Below, in pieces: positions 18,306 to 39,688 of a stretch of DNA of 64,000 bases (the first letter of the stretch is position 1; every line of letters begins with the position of its first letter). Source of the stretch: a virus; IMG/VR virus record IMGVR_UViG_3300035696_000005, positions 32,001-96,000 of that record. The stretch is one strand, 5' to 3'. The notes below the pieces were generated by a model, which had not been told where the DNA came from, made no database searches, and saw nothing but the letters and a program-made list of their open reading frames with translations. A program made the position numbers and the translations under genes.

Positions 18306-18315
18306 AGTGATTTTC

Positions 18316-18495
18316 CTAAGCTTTAATGTTGAGAATTTCGCCTTTTGGGCTGAACTCGATTGTAAAATGAGATTCGTCAAAGTGCAGATCGATATAAATT
18401 CTATCCCCACAGTCGCTTTCATCTAGATCCACTCTTGTAAGCAGTTTGCTAAAGACGCTGCGAGTCTTGTCGAGATCTGTTTGTTTCTTTGCCAT
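18316..18495 (-). CDS. 59-aa hypothetical protein (not in ORF track)
   Basis: MAKKQTDLDKTRSVFSKLL..; SD AAGGAGGG. Confidence 0.6.
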   Translation of the reverse strand: MAKKQTDLDKTRSVFSKLLTRVDLDESDCGDRIYIDLHFDESHFTIEFSPKGEILNIKA

Positions 18496-18532
18496 GATAA
18501 CCCTCCTTGCAAATCTTATAACGGAGAATCAG

Positions 18533-19057: not shown

Positions 19058-19078
19058 GACTTAAGTGTAGCACAAAGC

Positions 19079-19507: not shown

Positions 19508-19536
19508 AGTGAGTTCCCGATCAAAGAATACTGTAC

Positions 19537-19565
19537 TTGTCGCCCTAAGCCAAGTAGCTTAGAAT
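19537..19565 (+). promoter_or_regulatory. Sigma70-type promoter at start of head block
   Basis: TTGTCG-N17-TAGAAT, 9 nt before ATG 19575. Confidence 0.55.
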
Positions 19566-19574
19566 GGGAAGAAC

Positions 19575-19907
19575 ATGTTTATCCATGGATTTCAAAAACT
19601 TGCAGTCGCCGTCGTAACGCTTAGCCCTGAAAAGTACTACGAAATCGTTCGTGAGAAGGACCCTTATGTTGGGGCTCTTACAGGTGCGGCAGCAGGAGCT
19701 GCAGCTGGCGGTGCTAAGGGCGCTAAGGGTAAGAAAGCAAAGGCTGCCTTAGTTGGAGCGGGCATTGGTGCTGCAACTGGCGCAGCCACTGGCGGACTTG
19801 TTAGCAAAGGCTTAAAACACTATCAAGCACGCCGTGTTGAAAGATTGGCTCGTGAGCTAAGGCTGAGGGCAACTCCTGCACGATTTAGTTCCCACGACAA
19901 GGATTAG
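19575..19907 (+). CDS. Leader-bearing Gly-zipper protein
   Basis: MFIHGFQKLA; GALTGAAAGAAAGG and GAGIGAATGAATGG. Confidence 0.75.
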   Translation: MFIHGFQKLAVAVVTLSPEKYYEIVREKDPYVGALTGAAAGAAAGGAKGAKGKKAKAALVGAGIGAATGAATGGLVSKGLKHYQARRVERLARELRLRATPARFSSHDKD

Positions 19908-19966: not shown

Positions 19967-20842
19967 GTGGCTGAGTATCGAGATAAGGAAACATTAAACA
20001 CTTTTGCCAAAATTGCCGCAGATGAATATCTAGGCAGTAACAAAACTTCTCTTAACACGACGCTTAAGAAAATCGCCTCTCAAGAACACCTCACTCCCTT
20101 CCAAATTGAATACGTCGCATCAGAAGCCAACAAGGCTGTTTGGGGGAAACTCTTTTCTATGGATAAACAAGCAAGTTACGATTTCCCTCTGGCTGATTCT
20201 AAAGAGGTCCTAAAAGATCTGCAGGTAAGTAATTCACCAGGCGAGGTAAAGACTGCGGATCTAGACTACCTGAGTCCTCCGGTTTCCACCAAGATTGCTT
20301 CTTTTGATCCTCTCAAAGCTATGGGCTTTGTTGAGGAGAATATTGAAAAGAGCGCATCAGCTCGCAAGGAAGTTAAGAGACAACTCCAATACCGTCTTGA
20401 GAAAGTCTCGCATGCCAAAGAAGAACTAGAGCGTGAGCTTTACGTTGCGAACACGAAGATCGAGGAGCTTGAAACAAGTTTTGTAAAGACAGCTCGAAAC
20501 ATGATTCTGGAATATCCTTTTGAGCAGCGCGGTGAAGCGATGGATAAGATTGCCGAGTTTCTTCGTGCCTCAAGTGAAAAGCCCGACCAAAACCGAATGC
20601 TCATCAAAAAGCTCGCACACGTGATGAAGAGGCAGGGGCTTGTTAAAGAGGCCGACCTGAAAGCTCCCGAGCAGTACATCAGTGATAAACTTCCTTGCCG
20701 TGTTGTAAACGGACGACATCAACTCTCCGTTCTCGTGAAAACCATCATGGATCAATACGACTGGAGAGATACGCTTTTCCATCGCTATGAAATCGTAGAT
20801 AGCAGTCTGCCTACGATTAAGGAGAAGATCCGTGAGCTTTAG
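19967..20842 (+). CDS. Head core/internal protein
   Basis: Multiple hydrophobic-x-K-x-A sites (FAKIAA, LKKIAS, MDKQAS, IEKSAS); coiled coil; in head block. Confidence 0.65.
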   Translation: MAEYRDKETLNTFAKIAADEYLGSNKTSLNTTLKKIASQEHLTPFQIEYVASEANKAVWGKLFSMDKQASYDFPLADSKEVLKDLQVSNSPGEVKTADLDYLSPPVSTKIASFDPLKAMGFVEENIEKSASARKEVKRQLQYRLEKVSHAKEELERELYVANTKIEELETSFVKTARNMILEYPFEQRGEAMDKIAEFLRASSEKPDQNRMLIKKLAHVMKRQGLVKEADLKAPEQYISDKLPCRVVNGRHQLSVLVKTIMDQYDWRDTLFHRYEIVDSSLPTIKEKIREL

Positions 20843-21050
20843 AGATGGCTTCGATAAAACAGCAGGCATTGTCAGTGTAATTGGCAAAGGTGCCAAAATG
20901 CTTGGCAAGGGACTTACTCGCGCTGCAAGTGGCAACATCTCTAAGCCTCTGGGTCTAATGGATTATGCTGCTGCAGGTCTAACGGCTGCGGGTGCTGCAG
21001 GACAAGCAAAAGATATGTCTCAGCAGATGAGACAGGCTGCCATGAGGTAA
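20832..21050 (+). CDS. Leader-bearing small amphipathic protein
   Basis: MSFRDGFDKTAG; AAAGLTAAGAAG. Confidence 0.7.
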   Translation: MSFRDGFDKTAGIVSVIGKGAKMLGKGLTRAASGNISKPLGLMDYAAAGLTAAGAAGQAKDMSQQMRQAAMR

Positions 21051-21053
21051 AGG

Positions 21054-22337
21054 ATGAAGAAGCTTGATTTCTCCTTCGATTCCTTGCAAAAGAACCAAGG
21101 ATTTACGAAGGGATTCATGGACAAGCTTTCTGAGGATCTGAGACATCTAGAGAAGGTGTCGGCAGCTCCTGGCACTTTATCTCAAACCTTAAAGTTCATG
21201 CTTCCTCATCTCGGTATGGCTCTAGGTGCTGCGGCTCTAACTGGCACTTATGGTTATTTTGCAGCCAAGAAGAAATATGAAGAGCACGCGGATAAACTCA
21301 AAAATAGTTTTGATGCCCTTTTGCTCACCAATAAGGACTTCAATAAAAATCCGAGTCAGTTTGTTCAAAGATTTTCCGAGCTCTCGCTAATATCTCCGAC
21401 GGTAGCTGCTAACCCAACGCTTGCTCAAAAGATCATCACACCTCGACTCGACAAAGGTTTTGATCTAGATGATGTGCACCGCCTGTCGTCGATTGAATAT
21501 CACTCAACTGTCACACCTAAACCCATGGAACCAGCGTCTTCTGCTCACGCACATGCTGCGGCTACACTAGGACGCGCTGCTGAGATCATGTATCCGATTC
21601 TCATCACGCAGCGGCTGGTTGCTCCGGTTGCAAAAGAAGTTCACCAAACCAAAGAGAAAGTACAAACGTTACCCACGGTAGCGGACATTCCGGCACCCAA
21701 GGTAATTGTTAACAAAGACGCTCTCGAAGCCATTAGGAAGAAACTTGGAGGATCTGTGCTAGGACATAAAAAAGAAGGATCGGATGATCAGCAATGGGTC
21801 AGCGATGAGTGTCTAGGCAAGATGCTAGCAGATCGCTATTGTATGTTTAAGACGGCAGGTATCGTGCCAAAGGCCGTATCAAACGTTCTCAAATCAAGTG
21901 GCAACGCCATGCACGACTACGTGAAGATCATGGCTCTTCCTTTAGCTATCGGTGGCGGTATCAAACTGGTCAGTGACATTATGAAGAGGAAGGCTGATGC
22001 ACAGACAGAACGCCAGGCAGACCAGGTCTTTTCGGGACTAAAACGCACGAACTCTTACGTTCAAGAAAACCCAGAACTTGCTGCTCAGGCATTTGATACG
22101 CTCCGCTCATTTGCTCCGGCTTTAGCTGCAAAACCATTGGTTGCAAAAACTTTCGTTGAGCACGTAATCACATCCGATGGACGCATTCCTCCGGATACTG
22201 CAAATATGCTCGCTTCGACGCAACAGCTTGTGAATCGCCTCAATGAAGCTACTGGTGGCGGGTTTGTTGAAGGGCTCAAGAGTCCGATGTCTCTTTTCAA
22301 GCACACCATCTCTTCTAAGAAGGGCGAAAAAGAGTAA
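21054..22337 (+). CDS. Internal head protein with two paralogous domains
   Basis: Repeated F..L...N.....NP....Q.F..L....P..AA.P..A unit, each preceded by LEKVSA / MFKTAG and a hydrophobic segment. Confidence 0.7.
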   Translation: MKKLDFSFDSLQKNQGFTKGFMDKLSEDLRHLEKVSAAPGTLSQTLKFMLPHLGMALGAAALTGTYGYFAAKKKYEEHADKLKNSFDALLLTNKDFNKNPSQFVQRFSELSLISPTVAANPTLAQKIITPRLDKGFDLDDVHRLSSIEYHSTVTPKPMEPASSAHAHAAATLGRAAEIMYPILITQRLVAPVAKEVHQTKEKVQTLPTVADIPAPKVIVNKDALEAIRKKLGGSVLGHKKEGSDDQQWVSDECLGKMLADRYCMFKTAGIVPKAVSNVLKSSGNAMHDYVKIMALPLAIGGGIKLVSDIMKRKADAQTERQADQVFSGLKRTNSYVQENPELAAQAFDTLRSFAPALAAKPLVAKTFVEHVITSDGRIPPDTANMLASTQQLVNRLNEATGGGFVEGLKSPMSLFKHTISSKKGEKE

Positions 22338-22339
22338 TT

Positions 22340-24277
22340 GTGGACAAGCGATTGATTCTTCCTCAGAACATCGGGGATAGAAGGGACGTCTACTTCGTCA
22401 AAGAAGATAGGCAGTTTCTGCGCAAGCACGCATCAAGCTACCACCCGAAGATTGCTGAATATATCGAGAAGGCAAAGCCCATCCCGAACCTGATTCAGGT
22501 TCTGCTCACAGCCCTTGGCGCTTACGAGTTCTGGGGACAGAATGTAAACGGGGATCGCTTTAGGGTTCCTGCTCTCACTCACGAAGGCAGCGATTACGGC
22601 TACCAAACGTTTACTTCTAACGCTAACTATTTCACCCATCACGTGAATAAAGATCCAGCACTCGCTAAAGGGCAAGTGCTTCATGCTGTGTGGAACGAGG
22701 CTGGTAAGCGCGTTGAGCTTATCGTGGGAATTAATCCATCTCTTGATCCAGAAGGTGCCGCAATGGTGGATCGTGGAGATGATGTTACGTTCTCCATGGG
22801 AGCCAAAGTCCCCTTTGACGTTTGTTCAATCTGCCATCACAGAGCGAAAACTCGCGCCGAATACTGCGACTGCCTTCGCTATATGATGAATCAGATTGAT
22901 CCGATGTCCAACCAGCTGGTTGGAGCAGACAACCTCTTTCCTAAATTTTTCGATATTAGCCGCGTTTTGATTCCAGCCGATAAAACAGCCCATATGTGGA
23001 CGAAGGTGGCTTCTGCTCTCAATCCGTACAGAGCGCTTGGAAGTGCTCAACTTGCTGAACTTCCTGCGGGCACGCTCAATAACCCGGAATATCTTCTCAA
23101 GAAAGTAGCCGAGCAGCAGGAATTCGCTCGTGAGAAGCTAGGCACACAGAAGATCTCCGCAGTGAGTAAAAACGCCACGATCACAAAGCGGGTCGAGTTC
23201 ACGGCTTCTCCCAAGCTCGTCTCGCGGCTTCAGGAATCTGTCCCAACATCAAAAGCGCTACTTCAAGAAACATCCCCATCTCTTTCAGAAAAATCTTTTG
23301 AGGAGATGGCTAAGAATCATGTATCGCTTCAACAGCTTCTTTCGACAATGGCTGTTTTGGGGATGGAGCCCACACTAGAGGAGTCTGGCCATATCTTAAA
23401 GGCATTCGGTGCTGTGCCCGAACACCTCTCCTTGGGTCCTACACATTTTCATGAAGGCGTTTCCCGTAGGCTTCTTCCTTTGGTTTCCGAGCGCTCTTTT
23501 GCTCGTCCGGTACTTACAAGAAGGATCGTTGGATTAGCAAATAAACTGGATGCCGGAGATGCGGAGACAGTTAAAAAAGCTGAGGCAATCCAAGACATTA
23601 TGTTAAGAAAACCTCAAGACAAAGGAATGCACCCCGGCTATCTTGCGGGTCTAGCTGCAGCACTTTATGCACTCTTTGGTCCTCACGCTACTGGGTTGGC
23701 ACAGGGGATTGGTAAGGCAATGGCGGATTACCCGTACATCCTTCTTCCACTAGGAATGGGGGCTTTGGCTGGGTATAAAGTTCTTTCAACTCCGACGCAG
23801 ACTGGTTTTTATAATGTTGACGATTCTTTAGCCGGTCTCTACAATAAGAGCTACCAGAGTCGTTTTGCGGAAATGCAAGCGCGACCTGTTACGGTTATCA
23901 AAACCGGGGCTGCAAAAGCCGACCCAGAGTTGGCGAAAAAAATCTTCTATGGAGTTCCTGCGATCTATCTTGGATCGAAGGTTCTAAAAGCACGTGAAGA
24001 AAGTCATCCTGAAAAGCAGCCCGGTACAATTTCACATCTCATTGCTTCAAACCCAGAACTTCTCTCAGTTGGACTCATTGGTGAGCACCTTGCCGGACGA
24101 CCAGTTAGTCAAAGGGTTGGGAAGGCAATCGAGTCCGGAAAACGAATTATCAAATCAGCATCAATCCGAGATCTAGAATTTTTAGAGGCTGTTCCTGAAT
24201 CAGAAAGAGAACTGATTTGGGATGTCGCCATCCTTGATGCTGCAGATCGCATTAACAAGAAAGTGTTAGGAGGATGA
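22340..24277 (+). CDS. Prohead maturation protease (HK97/assemblin-like Ser protease with Zn finger) plus long C-terminal extension
   Basis: NVNGDRF, HHVNKDP, FSMGA, CSICHH..YCDCL, FFDISRVLIPAD; position ahead of scaffold and capsid genes. Confidence 0.85.
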   Translation: MDKRLILPQNIGDRRDVYFVKEDRQFLRKHASSYHPKIAEYIEKAKPIPNLIQVLLTALGAYEFWGQNVNGDRFRVPALTHEGSDYGYQTFTSNANYFTHHVNKDPALAKGQVLHAVWNEAGKRVELIVGINPSLDPEGAAMVDRGDDVTFSMGAKVPFDVCSICHHRAKTRAEYCDCLRYMMNQIDPMSNQLVGADNLFPKFFDISRVLIPADKTAHMWTKVASALNPYRALGSAQLAELPAGTLNNPEYLLKKVAEQQEFAREKLGTQKISAVSKNATITKRVEFTASPKLVSRLQESVPTSKALLQETSPSLSEKSFEEMAKNHVSLQQLLSTMAVLGMEPTLEESGHILKAFGAVPEHLSLGPTHFHEGVSRRLLPLVSERSFARPVLTRRIVGLANKLDAGDAETVKKAEAIQDIMLRKPQDKGMHPGYLAGLAAALYALFGPHATGLAQGIGKAMADYPYILLPLGMGALAGYKVLSTPTQTGFYNVDDSLAGLYNKSYQSRFAEMQARPVTVIKTGAAKADPELAKKIFYGVPAIYLGSKVLKAREESHPEKQPGTISHLIASNPELLSVGLIGEHLAGRPVSQRVGKAIESGKRIIKSASIRDLEFLEAVPESERELIWDVAILDAADRINKKVLGG

Positions 24278-24280
24278 GCA

Positions 24281-24907
24281 ATGGCTACACTACAGGAATT
24301 AATGGCTGAGGTTCTTGGAGAGACCAATCAGGGTCAGGAAAAGACAGCTTCGGCATCCAAGGTTTCTTCGACAGCTGAAGTCGATCAAATGTTGGAAAAT
24401 TTGGGACTCCAAGGTGCAGAATCTGTCAAAACAGCGTCTGCTGCTGCGGAAAAGAAAAATGGAGGAAACATGAGCCTTTCTGATATCTACGAACAAATCA
24501 TGGGCGGAATCGCTCCGGAAGCTGGTCAGGAAAAGACTGCCGCTGCTGGCGACGGTGCTACTCAGACTACTGAAGGTGATGAGCAATCGACCGCATTCGG
24601 CGAACTTGTCGCTGAATACTTTGCTGAGATCGCTGAGCCTTACTACGAAAAAGTTGCTTCTGATCTTGAAACGGAAGCTGGCAAAGGCGAAACCCCGCTT
24701 CAACACGTTCAGACTGGTGGCTCAATGACCACTGCTCTTGGCAAGCCTGCTGAGCCTCGCCTTGAACAGAACCACAGCGCTTCTAGCGGTGCTGCTATCC
24801 ATGCTGCTGTTCAAAACAGCACTCCTTACGCTCTTCGTGAAGCTGCTCTGAAGAAGACGATTCTGAAGCGTATGGCTGCGGCTCCGGTTGGCAACATCGT
24901 TGACTAA
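24281..24907 (+). CDS. Scaffold/core protein
   Basis: Acidic, Ala-rich; GQEKTA twice, VKTASA, YEKVAS. Confidence 0.65.
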   Translation: MATLQELMAEVLGETNQGQEKTASASKVSSTAEVDQMLENLGLQGAESVKTASAAAEKKNGGNMSLSDIYEQIMGGIAPEAGQEKTAAAGDGATQTTEGDEQSTAFGELVAEYFAEIAEPYYEKVASDLETEAGKGETPLQHVQTGGSMTTALGKPAEPRLEQNHSASSGAAIHAAVQNSTPYALREAALKKTILKRMAAAPVGNIVD

Positions 24908-24935
24908 TTCAAAGAGTGAATGAAGGAGATTCCTA

Positions 24936-25715
24936 ATGGAAAAGAACATTTTTGACGAAATTGAAAAAATGACGGACGCTGAGAAGCAAGCGCTTCTCAA
25001 CACCCAATTCCCGGAAGAGCTTGAGAAAGAAGCTGCTGCTGAACTCGATACTTCTCTTCTTGCTGACGCTCTTTACAGCTACGGCTGGCTTCAAGCTCAA
25101 CGCGCTCTTGCAGACGTTGATGGTCTCGACAAAGTCGCTGCCGATGACCTCAAGGCTCATGAGCAAGCTGAAGAAGAGGTTGCTGAACAGATTGAGGCTT
25201 GCCTTCAGTCCCTCGGCACTCACGTAAATGAAGACGATGCTGAACTTCATAAAGAAGCTCAGGTCTGCGCTGCTTTGATCTTTGACGGCTTCAGTGACTG
25301 CATTGAACAGGGCTGCATGGATAAGGAAGCTGCTTCGGCTATGGCTGCTAAAGCTGGCAAGATGGCTATGAAAGGTCTTCACAAAATGAAGGCTGCTGGC
25401 AAGAAAGTCGGCAAGAAAGCCCTTGGACTGGCCAAAAAGCATGGTGGTAAGGCTGCACTTTTTGGTGGCGGTGCTGCTGCTGCAAAACTCCATTCCGCTA
25501 TGAGCAAAGAGTCTGGCGCTCTTACTCCGGAACAACTTGTTGAGATTGCTTCTGATGTCGCTCTTGAAAAGCAAGCTACCATTACTGTCATTGAAGATGG
25601 CATCAATAAGCTTGCTGCTAAGGGGGCTCACAAAGGTAAGAAGCTCAAGGACATGATGAAGAGTTCTAAGTCGAGCGCTTCGTCTGCTTCGTCTAAGTCG
25701 AGCAAGTCGAGCTAA
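24936..25715 (+). CDS. Scaffold/core protein
   Basis: LEKEAA, LDKVAA, LHKEAQ, MDKEAA, LEKQAT, INKLAA; Ser/Lys tail. Confidence 0.65.
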   Translation: MEKNIFDEIEKMTDAEKQALLNTQFPEELEKEAAAELDTSLLADALYSYGWLQAQRALADVDGLDKVAADDLKAHEQAEEEVAEQIEACLQSLGTHVNEDDAELHKEAQVCAALIFDGFSDCIEQGCMDKEAASAMAAKAGKMAMKGLHKMKAAGKKVGKKALGLAKKHGGKAALFGGGAAAAKLHSAMSKESGALTPEQLVEIASDVALEKQATITVIEDGINKLAAKGAHKGKKLKDMMKSSKSSASSASSKSSKSS

Positions 25716-25728
25716 GGAGTAATCAACT

Positions 25729-26211
25729 GTGCGTGTGAAGCCTCTACAAGAATTGCTGGATCAGGCAGATGCTCTCTGCAAAGGTACAGCCTTGTCTAAA
25801 GTAGCTTCCGCTCAAGAGTCTGAGGTTTCAGCTCTAGCGAATTTACTCGTTGGAGCTGAAACCGATGTCAAAGTTGATTACGATCCAGAAGCTTTTAAGC
25901 AGACTGAGATCGATAAGATTGCGGAGAGTTTAAACCGCGTTCAGACTGCATCTGAAATCGACGTGGTGCTGAAGTTGGCTGATTTTGAGAAGAAAGCCCA
26001 GGCAGAGGGATACACTCAAGAGCAGATCAATGAAGCCTTCTCGAAGATTGCTGCAGAGAAGATCGCTAAAAACATTCCGCTTTTGGCTGCAATGGGATTC
26101 GTTGGTTTCACGGGTGAGGATAAAAACTCTCCCACCAAGAAACCCGATAAGAAGAAGTCGCAGCGTCAGCTTCTCGGTCGTCTGGATCTTACAAAGAGCA
26201 TGGGGTATTAA
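25729..26211 (+). CDS. Scaffold/core protein
   Basis: LSKVAS, FEKKAQ, FSKIAA. Confidence 0.6.
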   Translation: MRVKPLQELLDQADALCKGTALSKVASAQESEVSALANLLVGAETDVKVDYDPEAFKQTEIDKIAESLNRVQTASEIDVVLKLADFEKKAQAEGYTQEQINEAFSKIAAEKIAKNIPLLAAMGFVGFTGEDKNSPTKKPDKKKSQRQLLGRLDLTKSMGY

Positions 26212-26213
26212 GC

Positions 26214-26570
26214 ATGGAAACAAAAGTGATCAGCCCCGCACAAATTAAGCTAGCTGGTGAGATGCTCAAGAAAGAGCACTCTGAGAGACTCAGACTTGAG
26301 AAAGTCGCTGCGGATTTCGAAAAGAAAGCCAAGGCAGAGAAGCTGGCATTTAGGGAAGTTGAACTAGGTATTACCGAACCCTATAAGAATTTCGATGAGT
26401 TCCAAAAGAAGGTTGCTTCTCTTTTGGATGACGACCTCGAAGTTTTGGAAAAGGCTCTTGATCGGGGCTATGGGTCTTCCCGACGTGTGGGCGAGCTCGC
26501 AGATGCGGGTGGAAAAGTAAACAATCCCTTCGAACACTTTGTTCGTACGGGTGAACTTGTAACTGAGTAA
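26214..26570 (+). CDS. Scaffold-like coiled-coil protein
   Basis: LEKVAA, FEKKAK, QKKVAS; two genes ahead of MCP. Confidence 0.6.
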   Translation: METKVISPAQIKLAGEMLKKEHSERLRLEKVAADFEKKAKAEKLAFREVELGITEPYKNFDEFQKKVASLLDDDLEVLEKALDRGYGSSRRVGELADAGGKVNNPFEHFVRTGELVTE

Positions 26571-27099: not shown

Positions 27100-28068
27100 A
27101 TGTCATTTAGTGAAGAGGCAGTCACATTTAATAACCTGTTTGTCGAGAGAATGGACACTCAAGATGGACAGGTTAAGACGGCTCAGGCAGGTCAAGCTTA
27201 TGTCCGGTCGTTCTTGCGTGAACACTCGTTCAGCCGCAAGATTCTACCGCCAGAAAGCGTTACCCGCGCTGATCTAACCCGTTCTACGCGCCACGATACT
27301 CTCATCAAGATCGTGGACTTTGAACATCCTTCCACTGCTGCTGCGGTTAACTTCCGCTCGGCTGGTCGTGAGCGTTACTTGCAGGGAACTCGCTATGCGG
27401 TTCCGTTCTTTAAGGTTGAGAGCGATCTCTTCGTTAAGAACGAAGCTGAATTGCTAGCCTACGAGTATCCAATCACGAAGGTGATCGAAGAGAACTCAAT
27501 CAAGGACATCATGTTTGTCGAGGACTCGACCTTTATTTCGGCTTCTGCTGGCGCTGTCAGCACGTCGGGTAAGTTCATTGCCTCTTCGGATACGTCGGTC
27601 TCTCGCACGAACTTGAACAAGCTGTTCAAGATGCTCGACAATGATAAGCTCCAGTCGATGGTTGTTCTGATGACCAACGTCGACTTCGACGACTGGCACG
27701 TTCAGCCTGCGACTGACGTCGGTTCTCCGTTGGCTACTGAGCTCACGATTAACGGCTACAAGTATGAGACAATCATGCGTCGCCGTGTGATCGTTACCAA
27801 TAAAGTGGATTTGCTCGCTCCGGGCTCCATTTATTGCTACACCGATCCTCAGTTCCTCGGAAACTTCTTCATCCTGAACGACGTCAAGTTCTGGATTAAG
27901 AAGGAAGCCGATAAGGTCTTCTGGAAGACCTGGGAATATGTTGGCGTGGGCATCGCTAACCTTCGCTCGATCGCTCAGATTACTCTGAACGTTCCTGCAA
28001 TCCCTGGCCCAGGCTACTCTGGAACCTTTGGTCCGAACTTGTTCGCACCTGGTTATCCGGTCGCCTAA
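27100..28068 (+). CDS. Major capsid protein (HK97 fold)
   Basis: 322 aa; LRE.SFSRKILPP, KIVDFE, ELLAY.YPITKVIEENSIKDI pattern; strong SD and strong terminator; follows protease-scaffold-decoration. Confidence 0.85.
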   Translation: MSFSEEAVTFNNLFVERMDTQDGQVKTAQAGQAYVRSFLREHSFSRKILPPESVTRADLTRSTRHDTLIKIVDFEHPSTAAAVNFRSAGRERYLQGTRYAVPFFKVESDLFVKNEAELLAYEYPITKVIEENSIKDIMFVEDSTFISASAGAVSTSGKFIASSDTSVSRTNLNKLFKMLDNDKLQSMVVLMTNVDFDDWHVQPATDVGSPLATELTINGYKYETIMRRRVIVTNKVDLLAPGSIYCYTDPQFLGNFFILNDVKFWIKKEADKVFWKTWEYVGVGIANLRSIAQITLNVPAIPGPGYSGTFGPNLFAPGYPVA

Positions 28069-28090
28069 GGATAGGCTGTTTAGCATTGAG

Positions 28091-28130
28091 AACCCCTGGG
28101 ATCTTCGGGTCCTGGGGGTTTTCTTTTGTT
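28091..28130 (+). terminator. Intrinsic terminator after MCP
   Basis: 13-bp stem with cUUCGg tetraloop then TTCTTTTGTT. Confidence 0.9.
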
Positions 28131-28177: not shown

Positions 28178-28747
28178 ATGTCGCAAAAGATTCGGATTTA
28201 TAACATCACCTCTTTTCTAAAATTCCCCGGTTTCGGTATCGATTTCGATGGGCACTACCTGGCACCCAATCCCGATAGACCCTTGATTGTCGAAGTCGCT
28301 GTTGTCCCACAGATCCTCGAAGATTGGCAGGCTAGACGCTGGATTAAGATTCAGGCAGCTGATGACAAAACCCCTGTCACCAAAGAAAGCGAAGCTGCTG
28401 TCACACCGGGTACCCAGGTAAACGAAGTTGCCAGTGTACAGGTTGACGCACTTAATGATGAGTTGGATGAAGATATCTTTAACTTCGATACAGCTAAAGA
28501 AGCCTCGCTTACAGCTGACTCCACTCCAGGTCCTGCTCCCATGCAAAGCATTCGTCAAATGCAGACCGAAGAAGAGCTTGTCAGGTCTCGTGTTAAGGTG
28601 AGCCTAGGCACTTCGGACAAGCCTGGAATGGCAGATTCCGTATCTCCTATCCCGGGAGATCGTCCACGATCTGTCGATAATTCCGAGGCTTTTACCGTGC
28701 GCGCCCCTCGCCACACTGGCCCCGGAGCCGTGGTCAAGAGTTCTTAA
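28178..28747 (+). CDS. Hypothetical head-associated protein
   Basis: SD AAGGAG; acidic, Pro-rich C-half. Confidence 0.65.
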   Translation: MSQKIRIYNITSFLKFPGFGIDFDGHYLAPNPDRPLIVEVAVVPQILEDWQARRWIKIQAADDKTPVTKESEAAVTPGTQVNEVASVQVDALNDELDEDIFNFDTAKEASLTADSTPGPAPMQSIRQMQTEEELVRSRVKVSLGTSDKPGMADSVSPIPGDRPRSVDNSEAFTVRAPRHTGPGAVVKSS

Positions 28748-28765
28748 AGCGTGTAAGATGGGGGT

Positions 28766-29236
28766 ATGCAGTTAACCACCATCGACAAGCACAGGCTCGA
28801 CAAAGCACGTGAATATCTCAGGTTATTCCTTATGGACACGGAGGAGCTTAATAGGCTCCTCCGTCGTAAGGAAATCGATGACAAAAGACTCGACCTAGCG
28901 ATCCAGCTCACAATCAGCGATTGGAATACAACCACCCCGCTGATTGCTAACGTAACAATCGGAAATTTTCCAAGCTTTTATCTTCTCATCCATGGTGCAG
29001 CTATCCAGTGTTTGAAGATGGCTGGGCTCTACCAGAGTCGCAACGAACTTACTTACAATTCAGGTGGTAGCTCTTTTATTCGCGCTAACAAAACTGCCTA
29101 CTATCAGTCTTGGATTCAGAACTTCGCTACTGAATATGAAACCAAGAAACTCAACATGAAGATTCAGCAAAACGTTCAAGGTGGTTACGGGGCTGGTTTT
29201 CACAGCGAGTACTCACTCATTGGATATGACTGGTGA
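28766..29236 (+). CDS. Head-tail adaptor (neck 1)
   Basis: 156 aa helical, two genes after MCP; LIHGAAIQCL..RNELTYNSGG. Confidence 0.6.
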   Translation: MQLTTIDKHRLDKAREYLRLFLMDTEELNRLLRRKEIDDKRLDLAIQLTISDWNTTTPLIANVTIGNFPSFYLLIHGAAIQCLKMAGLYQSRNELTYNSGGSSFIRANKTAYYQSWIQNFATEYETKKLNMKIQQNVQGGYGAGFHSEYSLIGYDW

Positions 29237-29239
29237 TCC

Positions 29240-29443
29240 ATGTTTTGCGATGGCTTTAAGAAAGTTGCATTTCAGGCTCCCAAGGCAGCTTCTAAAAGCC
29301 GCTATAACGTGCCTAAACGCCTCTCTAAGCCGCTTGCTGTGCAGGTGACGGGCAAAGCCCTAAGCAAGAATCCTTTTGCGGCGGGGGCAGATGGACAAGC
29401 GGTTGGAGCCATGTACGGTGGCAATACGCATGCGGGGTGGTAA
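29240..29443 (+). CDS. Leader-bearing small basic protein
   Basis: MFCDGFKKVAF. Confidence 0.7.
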   Translation: MFCDGFKKVAFQAPKAASKSRYNVPKRLSKPLAVQVTGKALSKNPFAAGADGQAVGAMYGGNTHAGW

Positions 29444-29599
29444 ATGGGCTTTACCAAAGGCTTTGAAAAGATAGCTGGTAAAAAAGAGAAGGAAAAAGAG
29501 AAACCGAAAGTCGAAGTTAAAAAGACTAGTCCTATCCGCCTACCTTCCAAGTACTATACCGGCATTATGGTCGATACGAACGACCCTCAGGACGGATAA
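29444..29599 (+). CDS. Leader-bearing 51-aa protein (not in ORF track)
   Basis: MGFTKGFEKIAGKKEKEKEKPK..; ATG directly after upstream TAA, stop overlaps the ligase ATG. Confidence 0.75.
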   Translation: MGFTKGFEKIAGKKEKEKEKPKVEVKKTSPIRLPSKYYTGIMVDTNDPQDG

Positions 29600-30789
29600 T
29601 GAGCTTTACTTCCGGATTTTCCAAGCATGCTGAATCTCTTGCCCCGAAGACCCATTACGGGACAAGGAGTATTCATAAGCTTGATCCGGAACATCCTGGT
29701 GAGGCTTGGTCTGCGAAAATTGACGGAGCCCATACCATCATCAAGTTTAAAGCAGGCAAGCTTCCTGATCTCTTCTCTCACCGTCAATCTAAACGAACTG
29801 GCGGGAAGATTGATTACACCGCTAAGCTTCCCAATATCAAACGAAAGGTCAACTTCGATGGGCAATTCAGGGGAGAAACGTATGCTGTCGACCCTTCTGG
29901 CAAAGCAGTTGAGCCTGAAGTCGTTACTTCTATCCTTAATCGTGGTGTTGATAACTCTCTACGCTTTCAAAAAGAGCACAGGTTAAAAACAAGAGTTGCT
30001 CTGATTAACGTCGACAAGTATCTGGGGAAAAGCTTACACAACGCTACCTTCGAAGAAAAAAGAAACGTCATGGAGCAAGTGGCTAAAATGAACCCAGATT
30101 TCACTTTACCTGCTTTGGCAACAACACCCAAGGCAAAGCTTAAGCTTAAAGAGCATGTTCTCTCTGGTGAACACCCACAATCCAGAGAGGGACTGATCGT
30201 ACACAGACTGGGTGAGGCTGGCTCGCCTTTTGCGAAAGCAAAGATCTTCAAAGAACATGACGTTTATGTAAGAGACATCTTCAAAGAAGAGAGCACAACA
30301 GGACGTAAACCCATGGCTGGTGGCTTTTATTATTCCTGGACACCTGATGGAGAAATTAAAGGTCGTGTCGGCAGCGGGTTTGACCATGCTGAAAAAGAAG
30401 ACATGCTCAAAAATCCAAACCGCTATATTGGTCTTGTGGCTCGCGTTCAGGCCACCAACGTTTCTAAGAATAAAGTTCTCTTGAAGCCCTCTTTCAAACA
30501 CTGGCACGTTGAGAAGAATATTGGACTAGAGAAGGCAGCCACCATCTTCGCCAAGCAATCGATCATCATCGACAAGACCCATGAACCCGATCGAGATAAG
30601 GCCAAGGAAGTTGCTCGTGGTTTTGCTGACAAGATTTACACCTCTCGTGGCACTAAAACTCAGTGGCGTTTTAGGCAAAGACCCCCGGGATTGTTCATCC
30701 CCGGAAGCTTTAGACATGCTAAAATTAAACCAGGCGTTTCAATCATCTATGGACAAATTGATGAGAAAAGGAAACGTAAGACTTCGTAA
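29599..30789 (+). CDS. ATP-dependent DNA ligase with leader and fused C-terminal domain
   Basis: MSFTSGFSKHA; motif I KIDG, III RGETY, IV EGLIV, V KAK, OB-fold GRVGSGF and LKPSF. Confidence 0.85.
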   Translation: MSFTSGFSKHAESLAPKTHYGTRSIHKLDPEHPGEAWSAKIDGAHTIIKFKAGKLPDLFSHRQSKRTGGKIDYTAKLPNIKRKVNFDGQFRGETYAVDPSGKAVEPEVVTSILNRGVDNSLRFQKEHRLKTRVALINVDKYLGKSLHNATFEEKRNVMEQVAKMNPDFTLPALATTPKAKLKLKEHVLSGEHPQSREGLIVHRLGEAGSPFAKAKIFKEHDVYVRDIFKEESTTGRKPMAGGFYYSWTPDGEIKGRVGSGFDHAEKEDMLKNPNRYIGLVARVQATNVSKNKVLLKPSFKHWHVEKNIGLEKAATIFAKQSIIIDKTHEPDRDKAKEVARGFADKIYTSRGTKTQWRFRQRPPGLFIPGSFRHAKIKPGVSIIYGQIDEKRKRKTS

Positions 30790-31059: not shown

Positions 31060-32014
31060 TGACGTAAATGATTTAGAATTTCCCATCGATAAGAAGACGT
31101 TTCCGCTTAACTTCAAACTCATCGATGTTATCCCTCTTTCGAGAGATCCTGGTAAGGTTCTGATCCGTTGGGAGATTGAGCAGACTAATCTTAATCTAGC
31201 TGACTTTGAATTCTACATCGACCGTGGGGATACGCCTGACCAGATTCCAGCGTTCCAACACGTTACGATCGATGGAAAAATTTGGCGCGATCATCCGTCA
31301 ATAACAACACACTCTGTGAACATGTCTCAGATCGGCGGACCTATTAGTGCGCTCGATTTCTACGAGTTCACGGATTATGCGCTTCACATCAAGAATCTAT
31401 ATAAGACTTACTACTATCGTGTTCGCATCAGAAGGATCTCTACCCAAGAAGAACTTGGAAGTGCTCCGATTACTTGGAAGGGTGACCTGGACTTAGAAGC
31501 ACTTTACGTAATCGATGAACATAACTTCATGTTAGATGACACCACAGGAGTTCCTGCGCTCATCTACAAGAGGAGAAGGAGCGGGGTTCTTTGTACTCAG
31601 TGTTTTGATGTGATTCAAAAAAAGAGGCTCGCTTCTCGCTGTCTGTACTGTTTTGGAACCAACTGGGAAGGTGGCTTTTATCAGCCCATTGACGCCTTTG
31701 TAGACATGAGCCCTCACCCGAAACAGGAACTCATCAGAGAATGGGGTGAAACTCAGCCCACTGAGACAGATATTCTTTTTACCAATTATCCGCTTCTTAG
31801 CCCAGGCGATATCGTTCGAGAGATTATGCAGAATAGGATGTGGCGGGTAACCCGAATCAGACCCACAGAAAAACTTCGCGTTCCGATGCTTCAATTTCTT
31901 CGCCTGATTGAAATCAACCCAGGTGATATTGAGTATAAGATTCCGATCGATCAGCACTTCATTGAGACAAAGATCCGCCAGTTTGAAGAATACAAAAAAC
32001 GTAGGGAATTTTAA
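31028..32014 (+). CDS. Head closure/neck protein
   Basis: N-terminal FN3-like part (YYYRVR); RRRSGVLCTQC..CLYCFGT.WEGGF and GDIVRE..RMWRV; start uncertain. Confidence 0.65.
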   Translation: MEKTPVGSLIDDVNDLEFPIDKKTFPLNFKLIDVIPLSRDPGKVLIRWEIEQTNLNLADFEFYIDRGDTPDQIPAFQHVTIDGKIWRDHPSITTHSVNMSQIGGPISALDFYEFTDYALHIKNLYKTYYYRVRIRRISTQEELGSAPITWKGDLDLEALYVIDEHNFMLDDTTGVPALIYKRRRSGVLCTQCFDVIQKKRLASRCLYCFGTNWEGGFYQPIDAFVDMSPHPKQELIREWGETQPTETDILFTNYPLLSPGDIVREIMQNRMWRVTRIRPTEKLRVPMLQFLRLIEINPGDIEYKIPIDQHFIETKIRQFEEYKKRREF

Positions 32015-32706
32015 TGTTCGTAAACGGCTTCACCAAAACAGCCCAAGTCAAAGTCATCAAAACACTTGGCAAAGGTGGAGAGGGAATCGCTCATCTTGTG
32101 AGACATCCAAAACACGGGTTAGTTGTGAGAAAGACTTACAACATCACGGGAAAGCTTTTTTCGAAGCCTTTGTTTGAAAAGAAGCTTGAGATCTTGCGTA
32201 AAGTAAAAAGCCCGCTTTTAGCTAAGTTCTACGGTCAGGAAGGTAATAAGCCCATTACCTACCATGAATACGTCCGCTTCAATAAAAAGCGTGCTTATCC
32301 CACTGTTGCTCGCGAAAAAGCAGTTAGACTCCTTAACAGGCAGGTAAGAGAAGCAACTGGCGTGGGAATCAAAGACCTGGCTAGCGACAACTTTGTTAAA
32401 GACAAACAGGGCAACTACAAGGCAATCGATTTCCTGATCGATGGTCCTTTGAGTCGCACTTCTCGCAGAGGCCAGCTAAGACATGTCGGAAAAGGCATCT
32501 ACGAGAAAGCAATGAAGGCTGGTCTTGGTAAGAAGCAAGCGGTTAACCTAAAGCGTTCTGCCATCATGAAGATGAGGGGTCTTTTTGATCAAAGCGCGAT
32601 CAAACATAAATCGCGCCGTGAGATTATGAGGAATGCACTCCTACCTAGGCATGAGCGTGATAAACTCGTTGAGAGGGCAACAAGACCCGGGGTAAATCAT
32701 GTTTAG
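32014..32706 (+). CDS. Minimal protein kinase-like enzyme with leader
   Basis: MFVNGFTKTA; Gly loop GKGGEG, VVRK, catalytic loop KDLASDN, DF(L). Confidence 0.8.
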   Translation: MFVNGFTKTAQVKVIKTLGKGGEGIAHLVRHPKHGLVVRKTYNITGKLFSKPLFEKKLEILRKVKSPLLAKFYGQEGNKPITYHEYVRFNKKRAYPTVAREKAVRLLNRQVREATGVGIKDLASDNFVKDKQGNYKAIDFLIDGPLSRTSRRGQLRHVGKGIYEKAMKAGLGKKQAVNLKRSAIMKMRGLFDQSAIKHKSRREIMRNALLPRHERDKLVERATRPGVNHV

Positions 32707-33826: not shown

Positions 33827-35746
33827 ATGGCGTATCGTCAGCCCGGAGTAACAGTTACGCAGGAATTTGTGAGTGCTCTTCCAGCACTTGCGGTATTCTC
33901 GCTCCCTAACGTCATTGTCGGTCCAGTGTTTTATGTTGCATCTCAAGCTTCAGCAGGTCCTGGAACCTACACGGGCGCGCCAGCAACACTCAGCTATCCC
34001 GGGCAGCCTCTTGGAAGCTACGTTGACACTAGGGCATATGATCCAACCGATCTAATTTCATATCCAGTTCAGATTAATTTCAAAAACACGATCGTTCAGC
34101 TCTTCATGTCGACCACTGGTTCGGTCATTAGCCCAAACTTCAATACGTTTGTGGACCTCACTGGCTCACCGTTCACGGGTGTTGTTGCGGGTGACATGAT
34201 TGTAATCACATCGGGAGCTGATGCTGGAACGTACACAATCCGAAGCGTAACTGATGCCAATCACGTACAAACGAACGAAACATTCCCAAGTGCACTGACC
34301 GGGATTAGTTACTATGTTCAGAGAAACATCGGTCTTTTGAATATCCCAACTAGCACAGTTGGCGTGGTTATTACTCAAGCAAGCGTTACTCTTCCAACAG
34401 GACTTACCACAACGGTTGCTCCGTTTGGCTCGGTCATGATCCTTCTTGCCGAGGTTCTGATCACTTATCGCGCTCAGATGATTAATCGCTCAAACGATAT
34501 CTACGAGTACGCGAACGTCACGGCGCTTGAGGCTGACTTCGGTGCAGCTCAGATTCTTCCACAAAACCCGGCAGTCTTTGGAGCCTTCCTTGCGCTCAAC
34601 AACGCAGTCACTCCAACAAATATTCTGGGACTAGACGCCAACTACCTCTCAAACGAGCTTCTCTCTTACGATGACGCATTCGTGATTTTGTCCATGAACG
34701 ACATCTATGCGATTAGCGTAATGACTCAGAATACGGCGGTACACACAGCACTCAAGACGCACGTTGACGGCTACTCTCAACCGAACGAGAAGCTTGAGCG
34801 CGTGGGTATCATCAACCGCCAACTTGTTACAACTGCGATGGTCGATGGTCCTTTCACTAATGGCTCGACGGATGCAACAGGGTTTTTACTGACCTCAACT
34901 GGGGCTACGTTTATCACCGATGGTGTTGTTCCGGGTGATTTCGTTCAGGTGACGTCTCCTACGTTGTATGCTGGTAGCTACGAAGTCGGTGCTGTATTGT
35001 CACAGACTGTGCTTCAGCTTGTGACTGAGATTGCTCCCACGCTCTCCTCGCTGCACTTCTACACCTATCAGGAGCTTCAGAACAGCGAGCAGGCTGCTAC
35101 GATTGCTGCTTATGCAACGAGCTTTGGTGACAGCCGCATGGTCCTTACTTGGCCGGATATTGTCAGTATCCCTGTTGGAAACACGATCCAACAACTTCCT
35201 GGCTACTTTCTGAACTGCGCAGTCGGAGCCTTGACGACAGGTCTTCCAACACAGCAAGGTCTTACGAACCTCTCGGTTGCCGTGTACTCTGGTGTTGTTC
35301 ACAGCACAAAGTACTTCAGTAACGATGACCTCAACACGATTGCCGATGGCGGCGTGATGATCTTCGTTCAAGATATCTTGAACCAGACTCCTCTGTATAT
35401 CCGCCATCAGTTGACGACCAACAGAACCTCGGTTCTCTTTCAGGAATACTCTGTTACAAAGAACGTCGACTTCATTGCGAAGTTTATTCGTAACAACCAC
35501 AAGCAGTTCATTGGTCAGTACAACATTGTCGAGCAAACCTTTGATGACCTTAAGACCAATGCAAAAGGCATCATTAACTACTTGGTTGAAGGAACGAAGC
35601 TTCCTAGAATCGGTGGAGTTCTTGTAAGTGGTCAACTTACGAGTATCGAACAGAACCCAGATGAGCTGGATGGAATCCTTGAAACATGGACGATCACCGT
35701 TCCAGTACCGCTCAACTATCTGGACATCACCCTCGTTATTTCTTAA
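33827..35746 (+). CDS. Contractile tail sheath protein
   Basis: MAYRQPGVTVTQE; C-terminal SVTKNVDFIAK..FIGQYNI..VPVPLNYLDITL. Confidence 0.9.
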   Translation: MAYRQPGVTVTQEFVSALPALAVFSLPNVIVGPVFYVASQASAGPGTYTGAPATLSYPGQPLGSYVDTRAYDPTDLISYPVQINFKNTIVQLFMSTTGSVISPNFNTFVDLTGSPFTGVVAGDMIVITSGADAGTYTIRSVTDANHVQTNETFPSALTGISYYVQRNIGLLNIPTSTVGVVITQASVTLPTGLTTTVAPFGSVMILLAEVLITYRAQMINRSNDIYEYANVTALEADFGAAQILPQNPAVFGAFLALNNAVTPTNILGLDANYLSNELLSYDDAFVILSMNDIYAISVMTQNTAVHTALKTHVDGYSQPNEKLERVGIINRQLVTTAMVDGPFTNGSTDATGFLLTSTGATFITDGVVPGDFVQVTSPTLYAGSYEVGAVLSQTVLQLVTEIAPTLSSLHFYTYQELQNSEQAATIAAYATSFGDSRMVLTWPDIVSIPVGNTIQQLPGYFLNCAVGALTTGLPTQQGLTNLSVAVYSGVVHSTKYFSNDDLNTIADGGVMIFVQDILNQTPLYIRHQLTTNRTSVLFQEYSVTKNVDFIAKFIRNNHKQFIGQYNIVEQTFDDLKTNAKGIINYLVEGTKLPRIGGVLVSGQLTSIEQNPDELDGILETWTITVPVPLNYLDITLVIS

Positions 35747-37653: not shown

Positions 37654-38059
37654 CGAACATCACCACGCAGGAATGCTATCGCTCATGGTGCATCCTGGAG
37701 CGTCTGCAGTCTATTCCCACATGAAGGCTCCCAAGCACAAACAAAAGGAGCCAGAGAAGAATTACCTTAAGCACAGGCTTCATACGATGAAGGGTTGGGC
37801 TATTGGAGGCGCTGCGGGCGGCACTGCCGGAGCGGGGCTCGGACATGCCGCTGAAAGAGCCTACGCTCATGCCAGAGGAAAGCCAAAAATTAAGCTTAGG
37901 ATTCGGCTTCCAAAAACTCTGGCTAAGTCTATGGGTGAAAAGTCTGTACCGTTCTTTCTTGTTCCTGCCGCTATGGGCTCAATCGTCGGCAGCAACATAG
38001 GTCAGTACTACGGCTCAAGAAAAGGACACGAAGAAGTTACGGGGAGGAAAGCGAGATGA
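37619..38059 (+). CDS. Leader-bearing Gly-zipper protein
   Basis: MGFSAGFQKIA; GWAIGGAAGGTAGAGLG; AMGSIVGSNIG. Confidence 0.75.
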   Translation: MGFSAGFQKIANEHHHAGMLSLMVHPGASAVYSHMKAPKHKQKEPEKNYLKHRLHTMKGWAIGGAAGGTAGAGLGHAAERAYAHARGKPKIKLRIRLPKTLAKSMGEKSVPFFLVPAAMGSIVGSNIGQYYGSRKGHEEVTGRKAR

Positions 38060-38952
38060 GTTTTTCTCTGGGCTTCCTAAAAAAAGCCGACTCAGAAGAA
38101 GAGCATCCCGCAAGAAAAGCCTTTGGCATCGGCACTGGTTTGGGCGCTGCTGCCAATATCGCACACAATACTTACCTTGATCGAAAAGAAAAAAGAGTTC
38201 CACACGCTAGAACTGTCCACAAGTTTAGACGGAATCTAAAGCCTGGTGACATCATTCTGAGTGGTTCTACAGCAAGACACGCTGACGGGATCGCAGGAGA
38301 GGATCTCCCAAAGGTAGTTCAAAAACTACTCACTCGGTATAAGATCCCGTTAGATAAGACTCTCATCAATAACAGCACACTTCTTACCTCTGTAGGTGCT
38401 GGAGGCAAGTATCATGCTTCAGTTTATCTCGGTAAGAACAGGGTTGGCGAAATGTCCACAGACATGGGAGCGACTACAAGCTCTCTGAAAGAGCTTCTTG
38501 AGGGACAGAACGCAACTGCTTATCGCTTTACGGGCGCTGGGAAACGAGAGACCGGAAGCGCTGTGAGCTTTGCTAAACGCATGGCTAAAAAACATCACCC
38601 TTACAAGAGCGAACTCGGATCTGCGGCCATTGCCCTTGGAAACATAGCAACTCCTTTTGGATCTAAAGTATGCAGGAAAACTAAGAGCGGCATGGTTTGC
38701 AGTACCCTTCCTATACGTGCTTATCATAAGCGTCAATTTCCTAAAGGCGAGTGGACTTATCCCGGTGACATCAGAAAAGCAAAAGGACTGCATCCTGTTG
38801 TCAGGCGAGAATCCGTTAAGCTTCCGTTTGTATTACGTGCTAGAACCACTGCTGGGCAGGCTCTTAAAGGCGTTAAGTGGGGGCTGGGGGCTGCGGGGTT
38901 AGCAGCCGCTCACCACTATCTCAAGAATCGTCTGAAGCCTTCTGAGCGGTAA
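38056..38952 (+). CDS. Permuted NlpC/P60 (YiiX/YebB-like) cysteine hydrolase with leader
   Basis: MSFSLGFLKKA; LKPGDIIL, YHASVYLG (His), PY, VCSTL (Cys), YPGDI. Confidence 0.8.
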   Translation: MSFSLGFLKKADSEEEHPARKAFGIGTGLGAAANIAHNTYLDRKEKRVPHARTVHKFRRNLKPGDIILSGSTARHADGIAGEDLPKVVQKLLTRYKIPLDKTLINNSTLLTSVGAGGKYHASVYLGKNRVGEMSTDMGATTSSLKELLEGQNATAYRFTGAGKRETGSAVSFAKRMAKKHHPYKSELGSAAIALGNIATPFGSKVCRKTKSGMVCSTLPIRAYHKRQFPKGEWTYPGDIRKAKGLHPVVRRESVKLPFVLRARTTAGQALKGVKWGLGAAGLAAAHHYLKNRLKPSER

Positions 38953-39688
38953 GATTACCGATCTGTCTTTTGGCATTCTCCCTAATGAAGCGTTCCTTAT
39001 CTAGGTGCTTTTCTTTTCTGTCTGAATCGTAGACGCAAGTTCCCTGTGGGATAAAGAGCATTGGGATGGGCTCTTCCATGTTGAGATAATTATTATCGTA
39101 GCCGTAGATCCAAATCTTCTGCTGCATATAAACGGGAAGGGCTTTAAGCCCTTCGGAATAAGAGTGCAAGATGATCTCAGCTGGCATCCCGTGGCGGTGG
39201 AGGAACTCGTCGTTTACCGGTGTTTCTCCTGAGATAAAGATTTCAGATTCATCTAGGCTGAGTCCGTAGCTAGGTTGGATAGATAAGTGGTTTCTAATGA
39301 ATGTCACAGTTTCAGTAAGGTGTTCCTCATTGATTGTGATCTTGGTGGATGCTCTCATCTCAAAATGATTCTTTAGCTTCTTTACCAAACCAGATTCAGA
39401 GAGCCTCTTTTCCACTTGGCTTAAGAGATCGGACGGTGCTACAAGGTAAGGCTTTTTACTACTTCGCAGCGCAACTTCTTCCAAGCCAGCTACTTCGCTG
39501 GAAAGTGAGTTGAGAGGAATCCACATATCAATCTGATCGATACTCAGATTGATTGTCTCAAGCTTTGCGGGGATATTGAACCCGCAACCAATAATGACGT
39601 TACTATTCTCGGATTGAACCAAGAAAGATGAGGTGACAAGAGGGTGTCTGCAGTAGGGACTGCCAGTCCCAATAGCCCTAATCTTCAT
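38921..39688 (-). CDS. Metallo-beta-lactamase-fold protein (Apyc1/RNase Z-like) with lost metal ligands
   Basis: MKIRAIGTGS, VIIGCG, IDQIDMWI, VAGLEEVA, LKALP..QQKIWIYGY; HxHxDH replaced by LNSLSSEV. Confidence 0.75.
   Translation of the reverse strand: MKIRAIGTGSPYCRHPLVTSSFLVQSENSNVIIGCGFNIPAKLETINLSIDQIDMWIPLNSLSSEVAGLEEVALRSSKKPYLVAPSDLLSQVEKRLSESGLVKKLKNHFEMRASTKITINEEHLTETVTFIRNHLSIQPSYGLSLDESEIFISGETPVNDEFLHRHGMPAEIILHSYSEGLKALPVYMQQKIWIYGYDNNYLNMEEPIPMLFIPQGTCVYDSDRKEKHLDKERFIRENAKRQIGNLTAQKASDDS

Follow-up and report, generated by a model that had tools for sequence, protein, structure and literature searches.

The window analysed here, a stretch of 64,000 nucleotides corresponding to bases 32001-96000 of the 182,359-bp virus record IMGVR_UViG_3300035696_000005 from IMG/VR (rated complete by CheckV), contains at 32014-32706 a gene for a 230-residue protein that combines a short N-terminal leader with a compact kinase core and a very basic tail. 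All coordinates are window positions unless marked as record positions. The gene is present in one copy in the 182-kb genome. A preliminary description made from the DNA alone had singled out a set of motifs in the translation, all of which are found there, namely FVNGFTKTA at residues 2-10, GKGGEG at 19-24, VVRK at 37-40, KDLASDN at 120-126 and DF at 139-140; its estimate of a core of about 135 residues followed by a very basic tail likewise agrees with a core of 134 residues (11-144) and a tail (145-230) with an isoelectric point (pI) of 11.8. The gene is laid out as follows.

32014..32706, + strand: whole kinase open reading frame (ORF), 230 residues; a leader followed by the minimal kinase core and a helical tail rich in basic residues
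32014..32043, + strand: N-terminal leader MFVNGFTKTA (residues 1-10) with hydrophobic-x-K-x-A at its end; predicted to serve as a tag for capsid targeting and protease cleavage
32044..32445, + strand: kinase core, residues 11-144, assigned from the profile match to the PDB, the AlphaFold model, the fold matches and the invariant residues
32446..32703, + strand: basic helical tail, residues 145-230, in the place where a canonical C-lobe (activation segment, APE, αF to αI) would be

The core comprises a Gly-loop (G19-K-G-G-E23-G), strand β2 (24-31), K40 in β3, helix αC (51-63), a strand at 81-85 with the hinge residue E85, helix αE (98-115), the catalytic loop D121..N126 and the metal-binding D139-F. 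In the AlphaFold model most of the core has a predicted local distance difference test score (pLDDT) above 90, the leader is without secondary structure at a pLDDT of about 65, and the tail folds into helices 151-168, 173-197, 201-207 and 212-223. Lysine and arginine make up 23 of the 86 tail residues.

Fold and extent of the kinase core

Scans with the Pfam and PHROG models place the protein in no family, and Pfam Pkinase (PF00069) does not match it. Eight homologues share 56-65% identity with it, seven of them full length, and an exhaustive search of 1.84 billion representatives (clustered at 50% identity) returns 109 relatives at E ≤ 0.001. These come from metagenomes and from viral contigs of up to 202 kb; none of the relatives found carries a precomputed Pfam domain, and only one, from a metagenome-assembled genome, has a name in its source, 'serine/threonine protein kinase'. 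A Pfam scan of 85 relatives yields only stray matches, to Pkinase (weakly, in three of the 85; the relative L002 scores 15.6 bits with a cut-off of 31.7), APH (2), ABC1 (1) and WaaY (1). Among the 50,697 cultured-phage records of INPHARED, tblastn with the protein and with one distant relative gave no match, and a scan of viral contigs with the 230-residue protein alone found nothing. The related loci came from a sub-alignment and a metagenome scan, the profile of 85 relatives being too divergent for pattern scanning. The nearest cultured terminase, that of the orphan Salmonella phage Arash, is 29.5% identical, and this phage was set aside as a source of annotation since it allowed no useful transfer.

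The fold itself emerges with increasing clarity as relatives are added. A single-sequence search of the PDB returns MEK1 and related kinases alone at an E-value of about 0.03, and a profile of nine close homologues (A1) matches MEK1 over residues 8-146 at an E-value of 0.006. With the profile of 85 of the 109 relatives (A2), Chk1 and MEK1 are matched at 7e-7, with the Gly-loop, the β3 Lys, the D..N loop and the DF in register; 397 PDB sequences match this profile at E ≤ 1, and all 60 of those listed are protein kinases. An AlphaFold2 model computed on the A2 alignment has a pLDDT of 86 and a predicted template-modelling score of 0.74, and a Foldseek search of the PDB with it gives at least 500 matches at E ≤ 0.001, of which the approximately 50 listed are protein kinases without exception. 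Alignment by VIA-align to 48,161 chains gives Z-scores of 13.2 for PknE, 13.1 for BRAF, 12.5 for Rad53 and 11.7 for Rio2 (residues 8-144), and the same alignment of the Foldseek list puts CDKL1 at 14.6 (133 residues aligned, root-mean-square deviation 3.1) and CDKL5 at 14.1. In the BFVD models the fold matches are mainly giant-virus and herpesvirus kinases, with no close phage model among them.

All of these comparisons also agree on where the likeness ends. The A2-Chk1 match stops at the DF, and in nearly all listed fold matches the aligned range, which spans approximately residues 9-144, ends by about residue 144. The fold matches extend from the N-lobe through the αD/αE region and catalytic loop to the DF strand; helices at 146-223 are unlike a kinase C-lobe, and the activation segment, the APE motif and helices αF to αI are absent, the structural and profile alignments all ending at about 144-146. 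With sequence profile, fold and invariant catalytic residues in agreement, the minimal protein kinase that had been proposed for 32014-32706 is borne out by structure prediction and fold search, and the product almost certainly has a kinase fold.

The organisation around this core varies within the family. In the usual relative, which is 200-400 residues long, about 35 additional residues of helical structure lie between the leader and the core, and a Pro-rich tail follows; this extra segment has been lost in the present protein and its close relatives, and the leader therefore abuts strand β1. The basic tail is kept among the close homologues only, while distant relatives carry Pro-rich tails of low complexity. 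Four longer homologues of 423-533 residues (P0039, P0041, P0045 and P0084) have the leader at the N-terminus, and all but P0084 have a second leader-like copy (LEKIA or LQKLS) some 45-55 residues before the kinase core. This arrangement looks like the fusion of two tagged cargo genes, and the proteins could be polyproteins cut internally. The relatives as a whole are a sizeable, undescribed family of tagged phage kinases that lack the C-lobe.

Catalytic residues and likely substrate

While mean column identity across the 85 aligned relatives is 13%, five residues, E23, K40, D121, N126 and D139, are invariant in all 85. Near-invariant positions are G19, G21, G35, K57, G74, E85 and K136, with the Gly-loop glycines retained in 81 (G19), 84 (G21) and 72 (G24) of the sequences. 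The spacing from D121 to N126 is +5, and the DFG position reads DF-L. The column of K57 in helix αC consists of 80 Lys and 5 Arg and is aligned by HMMER to Chk1 E55 and MEK1 E114. Because the residues for binding ATP and Mg and for phosphotransfer are exactly those that are conserved, the product is probably an active enzyme rather than a pseudokinase, as far as conservation can indicate. The invariant Gly-loop Glu and the αC Lys may together stand in for the usual Lys-Glu switch.

A different view of the same core is that the protein is packaged but either works on phage components within the prohead or capsid, where it might phosphorylate scaffold or internal proteins, or is a nucleotide-binding structural protein or pseudokinase; in neither case would it be an injected effector. 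The αC Glu, the HRD motif, the C-lobe and the substrate-binding elements are all missing, as this view would have it, and pseudokinases often retain the fold. However, a pseudokinase has as a rule lost one or more of the β3 Lys, the catalytic Asp, the Asn and the DFG Asp, all four of which are invariant in the 85 relatives together with E23, and the supply of ATP in a sealed capsid would be doubtful for an enzyme working there, which makes this explanation distinctly unlikely.

The nature of the substrate can be approached from the same comparisons. A protein is a likelier substrate than a small molecule, given that the nearest matches by sequence and by fold are protein kinases and not aminoglycoside or choline kinases. 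The preliminary description had also raised a small molecule or lipid as substrate. Phosphorylation of a small molecule, lipid or sugar, as by APH, Kdo/WaaP or choline kinases, through which an envelope component or a nucleotide signal would be modified at entry, could draw on the stray Pfam matches of relatives to APH, ABC1 and WaaY and on the absence of the lobe that binds protein substrates. This is nonetheless highly unlikely, since the best listed matches by sequence and by fold are of the Hanks type (Chk1, MEK1, CDKL1, PknE) with no APH or choline-kinase entry among the matches listed, and Iyer et al. held the same view on comparable truncated kinases (PMC5512222).

The shared leader and its genomic setting

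The N-terminal leader of the kinase is shared with many other genes of the phage. The pattern G-Φ-x-K-x-[AST] (Φ, hydrophobic) within the first 16 residues is found in 11 of the 117 ORFs of the window, whereas shuffled sequences give 0.38 on average and 4 at most, and two further small window ORFs carry the leader as well. Genome-wide there are about 21 ORFs with the leader, nearly all on the + strand at 18-71 kb of the record, in the structural block. Five consecutive small ORFs with M-x-F-x-x-G-F-x-K-x-A leaders lie upstream of the window, at record positions 18200-19628 and two more at record positions 28568-29475, and two leader-bearing ORFs are found far off, at record positions 156183 and 166715. 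The tagged proteins are otherwise unrelated to one another; one is ligase-like, another, the product of 38056-38952, belongs to no family that Pfam finds, and the remainder are many small basic proteins.

The leader is also a stable property of the kinase family. It is conserved in every close homologue, and Φ-x-K-x-[ASG] occurs in the first 35 residues of 95 of 105 family representatives; many representatives have a second such site, VLKPS, about 11 residues ahead of the Gly-loop, a distance equal to that between A10 and G19 here. The description of the protein as leader-tagged is thus well founded. The exact form of the leader differs between phages: it is F-x-x-G-F-x-K-x-A in the present one, F-x-x-E-L-x-K-I-A in L002 and L004, M-K-Y-F-K-K-x-A in L010 and GLxKxA in L005. 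Within a phage the form is common to the kinase and to unrelated neighbouring genes (L010, 3212-7314; L002, 8639-10888; L005, 9653-13737), and such covariation is what a phage-specific recognition system would be expected to give.

The remaining features of the window that bear on the leader and on the position of the gene are the following.

19967..26570, + strand: head-assembly block dense in Φ-x-K-x-A, with 8, 5, 2, 7, 5 and 2 sites per protein
22340..24277, + strand: putative prohead protease of 645 residues, proposed as the leader-removing enzyme (PHROG 18299, head maturation protease, E 2.3e-5)
27100..28068, + strand: major capsid protein gene, upstream of the kinase gene (PHROG 2522, major head protein, E 2.4e-13)
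28088-28123, + strand: strong terminator-like GC-rich hairpin of 16 bp with a T-run, directly after the capsid gene (terminator scan)
29599-30789, + strand: leader-tagged protein resembling ATP-dependent DNA ligases (KIDG motif; PHROG 114, E 2e-11; Pfam ligase OB domain, E 0.001)
33827..35746, + strand: tail-sheath-like gene, downstream of the kinase gene (Atlas structure search, template-modelling score (TM) 0.85)
15083-15544, - strand: dual-specificity phosphatase with an above-cut-off match to Pfam DSPc (45.7 bits, E 7.2e-12), next to a family-A DNA polymerase (15955-17877) among the replication genes

The end of the leader, Φ-x-K-x-A, recurs inside the proteins of the head-assembly block. 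The + strand structural genes contain 58 such sites in 8,686 residues, compared with 15 in 11,412 residues elsewhere, a density of 6.7 versus 1.3 sites per 1000 residues, or 5-fold higher. They are concentrated in scaffold-like proteins, the putative protease and a large protein of 862 residues (2208-4796, + strand): there are eight sites in the product of 19967-20842, five in the protease, seven in 24936-25715, five in 25729-26211 and nine in the 862-residue protein, and none in the sheath, tube-region and baseplate proteins. The pattern is a candidate for a prohead-protease site with Ala at P1 and Lys at P3, by which scaffold would be shredded and the leaders of cargo proteins trimmed. The ligase-like protein, a candidate for packaging, is encoded in the same operon as the kinase, and the close relatives L008 and L009 have kept it together with its leader.

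The kinase gene itself is closely embedded among its neighbours. Its ATG shares bases with the upstream stop codon (TAATG) and the next ORF starts at 32699, within the last codons of the kinase ORF; with these overlaps at both ends the gene is translationally coupled within a long + strand late operon that follows the capsid gene. No promoter or terminator of its own is evident (terminator scan), and the arrangement of the operon around the gene is syntenic in close relatives. The hairpin after the capsid gene is probably a usual attenuating terminator that parts the highly expressed capsid gene from the late genes downstream of it. The gene had been placed between neck and tail-terminator genes, of which the location in a late structural operon between the capsid gene and the sheath-like gene is upheld, the structure matches of the latter being clusters with Phage_sheath_1/1C in 92-98% of members; the upstream neighbour, which encodes 328 residues, has a weak likeness to a neck protein (TM 0.39), and no tail terminator was identified.

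The shared leader could also be explained if the kinase were a cytoplasmic enzyme outside the virion that acts late in the infected cell, for example with assembly factors, the timing of lysis or host proteins as its targets, and with the common N-terminus serving chaperone recognition, co-translational assembly or the context of translation initiation. The scatter of the tagged genes over head, neck and tail genes and the weakness of the protease assignment would both suit a leader of that kind. Such an explanation is unlikely, however, as the five-residue end of the leader is repeated in internal clusters that are specific to head-assembly proteins, the tag is conserved over a divergent family and co-varies within each phage, and the strong basicity of the protein suits a DNA-bound cargo.

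The dual-specificity phosphatase could oppose the kinase in time. A conserved kinase-phosphatase pair was considered and rejected, with DSPc found in none of the four related kinase-bearing phage records. Elsewhere in the window, the - strand encodes a Macro domain protein (63281-63778, E 2.5e-6), a TerC-family membrane protein (55375-56058, E 1e-52) and a protein with weak resemblance to the metallo-β-lactamase fold of Apyc1 (38921-39688, 27.7 bits, below the cut-off of 50).

Proposed delivery and related systems

Taken together, these features suggest a model in which the C-lobe-less kinase would be constitutively active and produced late alongside the structural proteins, with its 10-residue leader steering it into the assembling prohead in the style of the T4 capsid-targeting sequence (CTS). 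The prohead protease would then cut after K-x-A, between A10 and Q11, leaving a very basic enzyme of 220 residues that would lie on the packaged DNA. In the next infection the kinase would be ejected with the genome and phosphorylate host or co-injected phage proteins ahead of phage gene expression. Targeting, cleavage, packaging, ejection, activity and substrates are inferred steps of the model, and the whole reading of a packaged, injected and constitutively active kinase is given a probability of about 0.5. Delivery by the virion is a reasonable inference from the shared leader, whose K-x-A end is enriched in head-assembly proteins, from the place of the gene in a late structural operon and from the basic composition of the protein; the pI of the whole protein, 10.8, resembles that of DNA-associated internal head proteins. 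Packaging in the virion is accordingly somewhat favoured. That the kinase is also ejected and acts on host proteins is plausible at a little short of even odds, and an anti-defence role is doubtful, the silencing of defence or host machinery being a speculation by analogy with the T7 kinase.

Several observations weigh against the packaged and injected kinase. First, no acidic residue is conserved in helix 51-63 among the 85 sequences, and because the canonical αC Glu is replaced by Lys or Arg, the usual Lys-Glu activation bridge cannot form and activity is therefore not certain; moreover, the His and Arg of the HRD motif are absent, and the subfamily of the present protein reads DLASDN, with no basic residue at D+2. 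Next, the protease assignment comes from a single weak PHROG match, with no Pfam match for 22340-24277, and the predicted N-terminal site of the capsid protein, QVKTA, misfits the strict motif. Several tagged genes also sit among tail genes, and the tag could therefore serve another assembly route. Finally, the phage is uncultured, and none of the Pfam Pkinase, Kinase-PolyVal and PHROG models detects the 230-residue protein.

A more far-reaching version of the model can be put forward only tentatively, with the odds clearly against it. In this version E23 and K57 would replace the Lys-Glu switch in a constitutively active half-kinase with an activation logic of its own; the enzyme would ride on the DNA by means of the basic tail and, seconds after injection and ahead of any phage transcription, would phosphorylate proteins that serve host defence or bind nucleic acids; the K-x-A leader code would be general to a large clade of uncultured phages; and the family would be the first recognisable one of virion-delivered phage kinases.

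The timing of action is what would distinguish such an enzyme. Kinases of the T7 gp0.7 type need transcription and translation first, so that one borne by the capsid would act earlier, at the stage when the outcome hinges on restriction, abortive-infection and signalling defences. The family, with its 109 representatives, is restricted to uncultured phages, whose contigs reach 150-200 kb, and is invisible to Pfam and PHROGs, and since it is large yet undetected, a model for it would improve phage annotation. Few kinase catalytic units that retain every phosphotransfer residue are as small as this core of about 134 residues, and the core's lack of the canonical Lys-Glu bridge is of interest for kinase enzymology. 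The leader, being short and transferable, could if validated become a tool for loading proteins into capsids.

One close precedent is the monophyletic group of kinases that Iyer, Burroughs, Anand, de Souza and Aravind described in 2017 in the polyvalent proteins of phages and conjugative elements (PMC5512222). These kinases miss the whole C-terminal subdomain, keep the active site, have a Glu before strand 2 and were predicted to be injected with the DNA (PMC5512222), so that the idea of C-lobe-less kinases entering with phage DNA is already published. Like this Kinase-PolyVal family (PF18762), the present protein has lost the C-terminal subdomain and kept the ATP-binding and phosphotransfer residues, has a conserved Glu ahead of strand 2 (E23, in 85 of 85 relatives, directly before β2 at 24-31), and is phage-borne, adjoins virion genes and is predicted to be delivered with the DNA. 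As far as the columns of the two families can be matched, the last N-lobe strand has Glu (E85 in 81 of 85, Gln in 2 of 85) where Kinase-PolyVal has Gln, and no His is conserved ahead of the catalytic Asp, residues 116-120 varying in length. The protein is moreover free-standing with a short, cleavable-looking leader, being neither embedded in a giant polyvalent protein nor fused to MuF or portal. The PF18762 hidden Markov model has no match at E ≤ 10 in the 182-kb genome or in the four related phage records, and none at E ≤ 5 to the 230-residue protein, nor are matches to it common among the 85 relatives. The present kinase is therefore taken to resemble Kinase-PolyVal in its working, perhaps as a distant sister, but is not filed as a member.

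In its predicted route into the head, the kinase resembles the cargo of phage T4 in that a leader of about 10 residues is common to unrelated late proteins, the terminal motif of the leader is repeated in scaffold or core proteins, and the cargo is basic and includes host-modifying enzymes. The T4 Alt protein is packaged and injected, and IPI-III are DNA-associated internal head proteins. Cargo carrying the CTS comprises IPI, IPII, IPIII and the ADP-ribosyltransferase Alt and is trimmed by the prohead protease gp21 (reviews PMC3012670, PMC9958956). Unlike in T4, the motif here is Φ-x-K-x-A and not L/I-x-E, the cargo is a kinase and the phage is unrelated to T4. By analogy, the loading logic appears closest to that of the T4 capsid-targeting sequence.

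As a minimal kinase, the protein is also comparable to RIO/Bud32 and OspG/NleH, compact kinases of about 200-270 residues in which the activation loop and the substrate-binding subdomains are likewise missing. The Gly-loop of RIO and Bud32 contains a Glu, and RIO kinases keep the αC Glu. Rio2 is among the fold matches (Z 11.7) but below many canonical kinases, Pfam RIO1 and Kdo have no match to the protein, and OspG and NleH are not among the matches listed.

Among characterised phage kinases, the promiscuous T7 gp0.7 kinase (T7K) disarms host defences (PMC13645617). Phage kinases of the T7K/JSS1_004 type share with the present family a non-canonical DFG, which is DPV in T7K and DF-L-P/I here (PMC13645617); kinases of this type act at the onset of infection, and T7K has a C-terminal nucleic-acid-binding domain, where the present protein has its very basic tail. 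Unlike the late, packaged kinase predicted here, T7K is made from an early transcript and does not form part of the virion. Kinship with T7K was considered and rejected, as hhalign of profile A2 with T7 gp0.7 gives a probability of 1.3% over 22 columns and there is no PHROG match. With respect to all of these systems, the new element would be the combination of a truncated, injected kinase with cargo loading of the CTS type.

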